Below the pieces are notes generated by a model. It had not been told where the DNA came from, made no database searches, and was given only the letters and a program-made list of their open reading frames with translations. This document shows positions 29,775 to 32,525 of a stretch of DNA of 64,000 nucleotides, one piece after another (position 1 is the first letter of the stretch; the number at the start of each line of letters is the position of its first letter). The translations under genes and the position numbers were made by a program. The stretch is from the NCBI RefSeq assembly GCF_988243305.1, contig NZ_OZ547136.1. The stretch is one strand, 5' to 3'.

Positions 29775-29829
29775 ACGCGCTCCGTTGCCAAAGAGTCGCC
29801 ACCTTAGCAGTTTTTATTCATAGCGTCTG

Positions 29830-30198
29830 CTACGTGCGGGACGAGGTCGGGTGTACCAGGCAATGCTGCCTAACAATGCCCCGACCAGAGCCATAAATAA
29901 AAATCCGACCAGTGCCCCTAACCACTTTCCCGCGGTAGAGCCTAAATCGCTTTTCAAATCCCGACACCGGGGCATCAGGGATCCGGCTCATCACCCAGAT
30001 GTAACGCGCCATTGCCCAGACGAAATAGCCACACCATGTATAGAAAGCCCACAAAGCCAATTTGCCGCCAGGGCTGCGAGAGAGTCTCTCTTCCATCTTT
30101 GTCGAACCGTATTCCATTTTGAGATAACCCGGAAAATTCAGACATAGTACTATTATGTGATAAAAGTCACATTTTTCCACATTGGATGAGCCAGTCAA
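29830..30198 (-). CDS. yedR: Putative inner-membrane protein YedR (start uncertain; an internal ATG at 30117 is possible)
   Basis: 122-aa ORF with the hydrophobic segment KLALWAFYTWCGYFVWAMARYIWV, in the yedR position between yedJ and the porin. Confidence 0.6.
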   Translation of the reverse strand: MTGSSNVEKCDFYHIIVLCLNFPGYLKMEYGSTKMEERLSRSPGGKLALWAFYTWCGYFVWAMARYIWVMSRIPDAPVSGFEKRFRLYRGKVVRGTGRIFIYGSGRGIVRQHCLVHPTSSRT

Positions 30199-30343: not shown

Positions 30344-30434
30344 CTTTTTTGATTTCTGTGTCATGATAACCCCGTTATTAGCCTTTTATCGTCTTGTTTA
30401 TATTTTTTGGGCCGGCATGATGCCGGCTTTTTTT
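30344..30434 (+). ncRNA. rseX: Candidate small RNA, probably RseX; only the 3' end is defined
   Basis: Strong plus-strand intrinsic terminator (gggccggcatgatgccggc plus 7 T, 30409-30434) with no plus-strand protein gene upstream; RseX is recalled to lie between yedR and yedS in K-12; the 5' end is a guess. Confidence 0.4.
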
Positions 30435-30745
30435 ATACCTTCATTAATGTGCGCGTGATCACGCCTGCCGTTTGGCGCAACAATCATTGATACTCCCTAT
30501 CTTTCCATTCAACTCATAACATATTGATATACATTTATAATTTTCATGAATGTTTATATTTAGAATTCATAATTCTGAATTATATTAAATAGATTAGAAA
30601 CATTTTGAAATCTTTTAAATACATTTGTTACATGTAATCCTTAAAATAAAATGAACTTCATAGAATAGTATCCAAATGTGCTTTTTTTTGGATAACGGCA
30701 CTTATTGATATATTCATGAAGATTATAATCACAAGGGAATACATA

Positions 30746-31933
30746 ATGAAAAGAAAAGTTCTGGCAATGCTGGTCCCGGCGTTATTAGTTGCTGGCGCAG
30801 CAAATGCGGCTGAAGTCTATAATAAAGATGGTAATAAACTGGATTTGTACGGAAAAGTAGCGGGCCTGCACTACTTCTCTGATGATGCTGGCAGCGATGG
30901 CGACATGTCATATGCCCGTATCGGTTTCAAAGGTGAAACTCAGATCGCTGACCAATTCACTGGTTATGGTCAGTGGGAATTTAACATTGGCGCAAACGGT
31001 CCTGAAAGCGACAAAGGTAATACCGCAACGCGTCTGGCATTTGCAGGTTTAGGCTTTGGTCAGAATGGTACTTTCGACTATGGTCGTAACTACGGTGTCG
31101 TATATGACATCGAAGCATGGACCGATATGCTGCCAGAATTTGGTGGCGATACCTATGCTGGTGCCGACAACTTCATGAACGGTCGTGCTAATGGTGTTGC
31201 AACCTACCGTAACAATGGCTTCTTTGGTCAGGTCGATGGCCTGAACTTTGCTCTGCAATATCAGGGTAATAATGAAGATGATGGATTATTCGGTCAGGAA
31301 GGTTCTGGTAACGGTAATGGCCGTAAGTTAGCTAAAGAGAACGGCGACGGCTTCGGTATGTCCACTTCCTATGACTTTGACTTTGGTTTAAGTCTGGGCG
31401 CTGCTTACTCTAACTCTGACCGTACCGACAATCAGGTTCACAAAGGTACTCATAACACTCGTTATGGAGATCGCTTCGATGCAACTGCTGGCGGTGAAAC
31501 AGCAGAAGCATGGACCGTTGGTGCTAAATACGACGCTAATAACGTTTACTTAGCAGCTATGTATGCTGAAACCCGTAACATGACTGGTTACGGTGATGCT
31601 GATGCGATCGCTAACAAAACCCAAAACTTTGAAGTTGTTGCTCAGTATCAGTTCGACTTCGGTCTGCGCCCGTCCATCGCTTACCTGCAATCTAAAGGTA
31701 AGGATTTAGGCGGTGTAAATAGTGATAACTTCGACAGCCAGGGCAATCATCATTACACCAACAAAGATCTGGTTAAATATGTTGATATTGGTATGACCTA
31801 CTACTTCAACAAAAACATTTCCACCTACGTTGATTACAAAATCAACCTGCTGGACAACGACGACGACTTCTACAAAGAAAACGGCATCGCTACCGATGAT
31901 ATCGTAGCTGTGGGCTTAGTCTACCAGTTCTAA
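30746..31933 (+). CDS. OmpC/OmpF-family general porin, apparently intact (yedS-like)
   Basis: Signal peptide [21 protein letters not shown], then [16 protein letters not shown] and C-terminal ...VAVGLVYQF, hallmarks of enterobacterial 16-strand porins; the track ORF starts 30 nt upstream. Confidence 0.9.
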
Positions 31934-31977
31934 TCAGCCAACGCGCCGCGGCGTGTTACTGTAAAACTTAACAATAG

Positions 31978-32013
31978 CCTGAGTTCGTCCCTCATCGAAC
32001 TCAGGCTTTTTTA
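31978..32013 (+). terminator. Rho-independent terminator of the porin gene
   Basis: Hairpin cctgagttcg...cgaactcagg followed by CTTTTTTATT. Confidence 0.7.
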
Positions 32014-32525
32014 TTGGCATTTCATCTCCATCTGTGGCACACGCAATTGCCAAAGCATATCGATACAGCACATTACCCCGCCACTCCTGGCTCAATAAAA
32101 TCTACCAGCGTCTCTTCCAGCCAACACCCAAATGCATTTCTTTATGAATTAATCCGCAACAAAACCGCCGTCCATATAGAAATATTTGCAAAAATAGTGC
32201 ATGAAAAAAGCTTTTTCTCTGCCAATCCGGGATATAAATATTCATCAGCACCATAATATTCCACATCACTAAATCTCTCCCCATCGCCCCCAAACCTCTG
32301 ATAATGGTCTAAAATCATTGAGGCCACTTGCGACGACGTTACTCAATAAGGAAAGTTTGGCGTGAATAATATTCAACACCAGTGCAGCATCATCATTACA
32401 TACTTATGCCCGCCAACTACCGCTTTCGATATATTGACTCAATTTTTCAGCCTGGTTAAAAATAGCGACCAGCTCAGTCGCAAATATAGTGACTACCCTA
32501 ACTAAGCAACAATAAGGAATACACT

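Follow-up and report, generated by a model that had tools for sequence, protein, structure and literature searches.

The window, the 64,000-nt stretch of DNA analysed here, carries at 30746..31933 (+) a gene that we identify with high confidence as an intact yedS, a general-diffusion porin paralogous to OmpC that is probably expressed conditionally and would serve as a back-up route if OmpF and OmpC are lost. The gene goes by the name ompS1 in some E. coli literature. An intact yedS is not new: this alternative porin is a known gene, the allele in the window is already catalogued, intact copies are common in wild strains, and K-12 is the exception. An active YedS porin with a role in carbapenem susceptibility has been described in clinical isolates by Warner et al. 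2013 (AAC 57:1935), as far as the work is represented in the citing papers PMC4048246 and PMC11267920.

The coding sequence comprises 395 codons plus the stop and, in the open reading frame list, is free of stops and frameshifts. The listed open frame, 30716..31933 (+), encodes 405 aa, and an internal ATG at 30746 yields the 395-aa protein ending in ...GLVYQF. The complete genome of the pig isolate E. coli W619 is 100% identical to the window over 30400..32300 (megablast, 1.9 kb), which makes an assembly error in the window very unlikely. Its RefSeq CDS WP_000824408.1, ‘porin OmpC’, is 100% identical in protein and starts at the ATG matching 30746. A Shine-Dalgarno sequence, AAGGGA (30733..30738, +), lies 7 nt 5’ of this ATG and is kept across genera. 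The 21-residue signal peptide (30746..30808, +) is cut before AEVYNK, the mature PDB chains of OmpC and OmpK36 beginning at query residue 22. A comparison of loci across genera showed that sequence is conserved from the Shine-Dalgarno onward, while most Citrobacter loci, Klebsiella and Enterobacter lack the ATG at 30716. The RefSeq start in W619, the Shine-Dalgarno, the classical porin signal peptide and the cross-genus conservation of the ATG together identify 30746 as the true start. The 405-aa version from ATG 30716, given in GenBank records such as P0006 and P0013, was rejected, as it would bury the signal peptide and begins at an ATG mostly unconserved in other genera. The initial annotation, made from the sequence alone, had described an uninterrupted 395-aa frame with a signal peptide, a conserved porin N-terminus and a C-terminal GLVYQF. 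The open reading frame list and the alignment with the K-12 allele revealed neither a hidden stop nor a frameshift, and the mature N-terminus proved identical to that of OmpC.

The protein matches Pfam Porin_1 (PF00267) with 472.9 bits against a cutoff of 23.7, over residues 27-395 and profile positions 1-337 of 337. It also scores 539.7 bits against the NCBIfam model NF007841 ‘porin OmpC’ (cutoff 484), a subfamily model and not an equivalog. With E-values of 9e-142 and 3e-162, respectively, these matches exclude a chance ORF. Scores for the OmpF equivalog NF007446 (444.8 bits, cutoff 583) and the PhoE equivalog NF007544 (440.3 bits, cutoff 599) fell below their cutoffs. The best solved relatives by sequence were, in order, K. 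pneumoniae OmpK37 (6v78, E = 6e-145), Omp36/OmpK36, E. coli OmpC, PhoE and OmpF. Membership of the OmpC family, as originally proposed, is thus corroborated by the NCBIfam subfamily, by Pfam, by the solved homologues and by the Foldseek comparison described below.

An AlphaFold2 model of YedS, computed from a 73-sequence alignment, contains 16 strands (pLDDT 85.4, pTM 0.85). Low-confidence regions are confined to the signal peptide, L4 (residues 180-192, pLDDT below 50) and L5 (234-245). Foldseek gave target-normalised TM-scores of 0.94 for OmpK37 (6v78) and 0.93-0.97 for OmpK36, OmpC, OmpF and PhoE, those for OmpK36/OmpC being 0.94-0.95. YedS is therefore predicted to be a 16-stranded β-barrel, with loop L3 (31094..31183, +; AlphaFold2 secondary structure) folded into the lumen and bearing the PEFGG motif. 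All six constriction-zone residues listed for OmpK37 (PMC7157821) occur in YedS at identical mature positions. The basic residues K16, R37, R75 and R126 of the barrel wall face the L3 acids D106 and E110, whereas Tyr118 of OmpK37 is replaced with Gly in YedS. The protein ends in a terminal Phe. From the modelled fold and the conservation of these residues, we infer a function as a pore. In the proposed pathway, YedS would be exported by Sec via its signal peptide and then inserted by the Bam machinery. Its features and solved homologues suggest that it forms trimers, and that small hydrophilic solutes, including β-lactams and carbapenems, could diffuse through an OmpC/OmpK37-like pore.

The initial annotation had further described a long Gly/Asn/Asp-rich insertion forming an extended surface loop. 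The motif corresponds to residues 183-204 (window 31292..31357) in predicted L4 (residues 174-201; 31265..31348, +), which AlphaFold2 places between strands 166-173 and 202-210. Mapping of the loops on the structure model put this stretch on the external side, unstructured, so that the surface loop stands. The description as an insertion does not, since L4 aligns gap-free with the equally long L4 of OmpC. Its length stands out only beside OmpF-type porins and the class C and D alleles described below, from which this loop is absent. The length excess over OmpC resides instead in L5 (31421..31498, +; 11 residues longer, variable), in L7 (31709..31756, +; 12 residues longer, the most variable class-A loop) and in single residues elsewhere. 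The evidence on both loops comes from the AlphaFold2 model, the OmpC alignment and the class-A variants.

Among 123 distinct protein variants of class A, the allele class of the window gene, variation is concentrated in L2, L4, L5 and L7 (Mann-Whitney p = 1e-8; Fisher p = 2e-6), with hardly any in the barrel, the periplasmic turns or L3. Nearly all of the differences between strains thus fall in the eight external loops. L3 has the lowest mean entropy of any loop (0.03), and L7 the highest, with 63% non-reference residues. The clustering of substitutions in external loops, sparing the barrel and L3, points to a protein that is produced and exposed. Such loop-focused variation is the pattern that would be expected under exposure to phage, colicins and antibodies.

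The gene order dcm-yedJ-drpB(yedR)-rseX-porin-hchA-hprSR identifies the position in the window as the yedS locus. The same order was found in all E. coli loci sampled, except for IS elements 3’ of the porin in strain Z217-2. In a K-12-lineage genome the same slot is annotated ‘porin OmpC, frameshifted; internal stop’. Alignment of the two alleles revealed exactly two disabling changes in K-12 that the window allele lacks: codon 162 reads TAG in place of CAG, and one base pair is deleted near nt 663. No other differences disrupt the frame. The alleles are identical in 1047 of 1212 aligned columns (86% overall), with hardly any differences in the first ~520 nt and strong ones in loops L4-L7. The K-12 pseudogene, annotated as three fragments (b1964-b1966), is the same gene, with the slot, flanking genes and signal peptide of the window gene. 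The TAG codon and the deletion account for the three fragments. Synteny, the pseudogene annotation and the mapping of the lesions thus agree with the original placement of the gene at the locus where K-12 carries a fragmented yedS.

Upstream of yedS by 311 nt and on the same strand lies rseX, an Hfq-binding sRNA gene with its terminator (30345..30434, +; Rfam RF01401, 97.8 bits), so that a porin-regulating sRNA adjoins the spare porin. RseX has been reported to be repressed by H-NS and to act on the mRNAs of ompA and ompC. The cell-division gene drpB (yedR; 29814..30096, -) is frameshifted by an extra A near 29954 (GAAAGC to GAAAAGC). It is likewise annotated ‘frameshifted’ in W619, in O157:H7 TX376-2 and in strain H3, and is intact in K-12; with yedS intact and drpB broken, the window strain is the reverse of K-12. 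In E. coli Z217-2 (L013, 3958..5844), IS30 and IS600/IS3 fragments follow a frameshifted porin and replace hchA within the 2.5 kb examined, which indicates that the slot can be disrupted by insertion sequences too.

The exact protein is present on at least 1000 public contigs, and its 90%-identity cluster has 1201 members; about 110 complete genomes, from humans and pigs, carry the CDS at ≥99% identity, many at 100%. Among 13 E. coli loci sampled across the similarity range, ten are intact and three, in K-12, O157:H7 and Z217-2, are pseudogenes. A 63-mer containing the K-12 nonsense mutation occurs in 357 of 5426 genomes. The independent inactivations in these three strains indicate that yedS is dispensable. 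Database names include porin OmpC and OmpN, with relatives called ‘yedS’ or ‘outer membrane protein S1’. PGAP assigns the symbol ‘ompC’ to yedS (e.g. in NZ_CP122503.1), giving genomes with two ‘ompC’ genes. In resistance genomics, this label can cause automated calls of porin loss to confuse yedS with the real ompC, and the 405-aa GenBank starts can mislead such calls too.

A porin directly 3’ of dcm-yedJ was also found in other genera. Among the best 80 loci listed from a genome scan, this porin is 88-97% identical to the window protein in other Escherichia and 76-81% identical in Citrobacter, and it occurs in Superficieibacter as well. Porins in this position with 64-70% identity were found in Klebsiella, Enterobacter, Lelliottia, Kluyvera, Buttiauxella and others. 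Conservation of the dcm-yedJ-porin arrangement across Enterobacteriaceae argues that yedS is an old resident and not a recent insertion. No Salmonella dcm-yedJ-porin locus appeared among these best 80.

Several known porins invite comparison with YedS. K. pneumoniae OmpK37, the top solved match, shares its fold and constriction residues at 63% identity, differing at the Tyr118 position noted above. OmpK37 and OmpK38 are, like YedS, alternative porins, with a role in β-lactam permeability (PMC7157821). OmpK37 was rejected as the yedS orthologue, because L035, the porin 3’ of dcm-yedJ in K. pneumoniae ATCC 13883, shares only 69.5% identity with the crystallised OmpK37 and is thus another paralogue. 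The positional counterpart of yedS in K. pneumoniae is possibly OmpK38. Salmonella OmpS1 shares its name with E. coli yedS, through a label in PMC2731931 and one record named ‘outer membrane protein S1’. Both are long-looped OmpC-like porins with AT-rich upstream regions and OmpR-box-like repeats, and the shared names suggest a putative orthology. Our search retrieved no literature pairing STM1995 with ompS1. Salmonella ompS1 is repressed by H-NS and StpA and activated by LeuO and OmpR, whereas for the E. coli gene we infer its regulation.

The E. coli yedS slot is occupied by at least four allele classes, which are 59-72% identical in protein and range from 352 to 404 aa. These were compared using the E. 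coli loci L004, L005, L006, L010, L011 and L012 together with the window, and their approximate frequencies were obtained by probing 5426 complete genomes with the central ~500 nt of each class. Class A, the window type (393-404 aa, 88-97% identical within the class), was found in 1393 genomes and has Citrobacter positional orthologues at ~80% identity. Class B (FORC_042, O111:H8; L004:1848-3011) encodes 387 aa with 72% identity to the window protein and was found in 371. Class C (EC6563, UID2404240038; L005:1848-2921) encodes 357-371 aa with 61% identity and was found full-length in 742, ~496 further genomes having only matches of 80-90% identity. Class D (E1648; L006:1848-2906) encodes 352 aa with 59% identity and was found in 1148. 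Among the classes sampled, the promoter and 5’ region are near-identical, and the signal peptide is identical bar one A/T difference.

The classes differ in their affinities. Class B lies nearer to the dcm-yedJ porins of Enterobacter, Lelliottia and Trabulsiella (80.7% identity) than to class A. The best solved match of both class C and class D is OmpK35 (506 and 442 bits, respectively, versus 400 and 367 for E. coli OmpF). Both have the L3 sequence VEWGGDSW, not PEFGGDTY, and fall below the cutoffs of all three NCBIfam models. These affinities suggest either inter-genus exchange or a very old polymorphism. The central region of class D (L006:2298-2780) matches up to four places per genome and gave one plasmid match, so class-D-like porin sequence is also present elsewhere in some genomes. 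A search of the literature mentioning yedS, itself incomplete, returned no description of this four-class polymorphism. We tentatively raise the idea, which we hold to be possible but doubtful, that the slot is an under-described multi-allelic ‘porin cassette’, with OmpC-like classes A and B and OmpK35/OmpF-like classes C and D kept by balancing selection. If such selection, by phage, colicins or antibodies, acted together with recombination break-points at the signal-peptide junction and in the 3’ flank, the slot would be a case of trans-specific polymorphism, swapping pore type plus antigenic surface at one locus.

The region upstream of yedS bears several putative regulatory elements. Four phased 10-bp units, GAAACATTTT GAAATCTTTT AAATACATTT GTTACATGTA (30597..30636, +), are putative OmpR-binding boxes. 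The block is conserved in syntenic loci of Escherichia, Citrobacter, Klebsiella and Enterobacter, and sequence further upstream is not. It has the 11-mer ACATTTTGAAA in common with TTTACATTTTGAAACATCTA upstream of ompC, which we take to be OmpR site C1. A consensus scan alone gave a candidate weak σ70 promoter, TTGTTA-16 nt-TAAAAT (30625..30652, +), which overlaps the last 10-bp unit and implies a 5’UTR of ~85 nt. G+C content falls to 21% upstream of yedS, this promoter stretch included, a composition like that of regions silenced by H-NS. A hairpin, ATCCAAA...TTTGGAT (30670..30693, +), was read from the sequence of the 5’UTR, with a T tract in its loop. The length of this T8 tract (30682..30689) differs among strains and species, ranging from T7 to T9. 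Downstream, an intrinsic terminator with a 12-bp stem and a T run is predicted at 31976..32007 (+). Codon bias is weaker than in ompC (Asn AAC/AAT 22/14 versus 31/0; nine TTA Leu codons versus one).

A CRP site upstream of K-12 yedS was identified in vitro by Footprint-seq (preprint PMC12871828). The corresponding window sequence is TAATGTGCGCGTGATCACGCC (30445..30465), in which one half-site reads TCACG versus TCACA in K-12. K-12 ‘yedS (ompS1)’ is repressed on σE overexpression (PMC2731931). Salmonella ompS1 is quiescent and silenced by H-NS and StpA, and LeuO antagonises H-NS there (PMC4264507). The low upstream G+C content, the OmpR-box-like repeats, the weak promoter, the codon bias and the behaviour of Salmonella ompS1 indicate that expression of yedS is probably conditional. 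The promoter, the OmpR boxes and silencing by H-NS are proposed from sequence features, and on this model expression would be OmpR-dependent and H-NS-silenced rather than constitutive. In strains deficient in OmpF and OmpC, YedS would act as a back-up entry route, the manner in which a functional YedS reportedly influences carbapenem susceptibility.

YedS is reportedly regulated by MicF. A duplex calculation (RNAduplex) between MicF nt 1-40, using a query sequence matched at 100% in 2030 genomes, and yedS from -90 to +45 gave -12.6 kcal/mol (z = +0.4), no better than shuffled sequences. The ompF control gave -27.4 (z = -4.0). The lack of an ompF-like MicF duplex at the start of yedS suggests that the link with MicF is either indirect or acts via a weak site. 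Whole-sRNA duplex energies for RseX were no better than those of shuffles, for yedS and for the known RseX target ompC alike.

The name given by RefSeq and PGAP, ‘ompC: porin OmpC’, and the score above the NCBIfam OmpC cutoff would fit the strain’s ompC or a duplicate of it, a reading we regard as very improbable. NF007841 defines only a subfamily, and the 60% pairwise identity to K-12 OmpC (a comparison sequence 100% identical to PDB 2j1n) is that of a paralogue that shares fold, mature N-terminus, L3 motif and L4 length with OmpC and differs in L5, L7 and codon bias. The position also differs: canonical ompC (b2215 in K-12) lies between apbE and micF/rcsD, whereas the window gene lies between rseX/drpB and hchA with no micF next to it, and no second porin was found within the 64,000 nt of the window. 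Phage-encoded porins of the same family do give full-length matches, which would fit a phage-derived porin of the NmpC/Lc/OmpD type left as a prophage remnant. We consider this origin scarcely credible, since phage-borne matches reach at most 67% identity and mostly show 60%, the flanks contain no phage genes, and the dcm-yedJ-porin arrangement recurs in Citrobacter, Klebsiella, Enterobacter, Lelliottia, Kluyvera and Buttiauxella. The possibility raised at the outset of a duplicated ompC or nmpC is therefore countered by 60% identity to OmpC, at most 67% identity to phage-borne NmpC/OmpD-type porins and the lack of another porin in the window.

A further reading accepts the intact frame and holds the gene to be effectively cryptic, with no transcription under any natural condition and with drift toward a K-12-like pseudogene. 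The independent inactivations in K-12, O157:H7 and Z217-2, the 357 genomes with the K-12 nonsense 63-mer, the extremely AT-rich upstream region, a codon bias weaker than that of ompC, and a namesake Salmonella gene that is ‘quiescent’ in the laboratory (PMC4264507) are all consistent with this. Drift of this kind is nevertheless unlikely in our judgement, given that ten of the 13 sampled loci are intact and that substitutions cluster in exposed loops while sparing the barrel and L3. Moreover, other genera share the promoter-proximal block and the Shine-Dalgarno, the pore residues are intact, and a functional YedS phenotype has been published, as reported in the citing papers PMC4048246 and PMC11267920. 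We therefore favour an intact and conditionally expressed yedS.

The window strain has retained a spare porin that looks functional, a point relevant to how readily it can lose OmpF/OmpC and still be permeable to carbapenems. The polymorphism of the slot in pore type and loops could alter phage host range and colicin sensitivity strain by strain, and could also affect the choice of vaccine antigens and drug permeability between strains.
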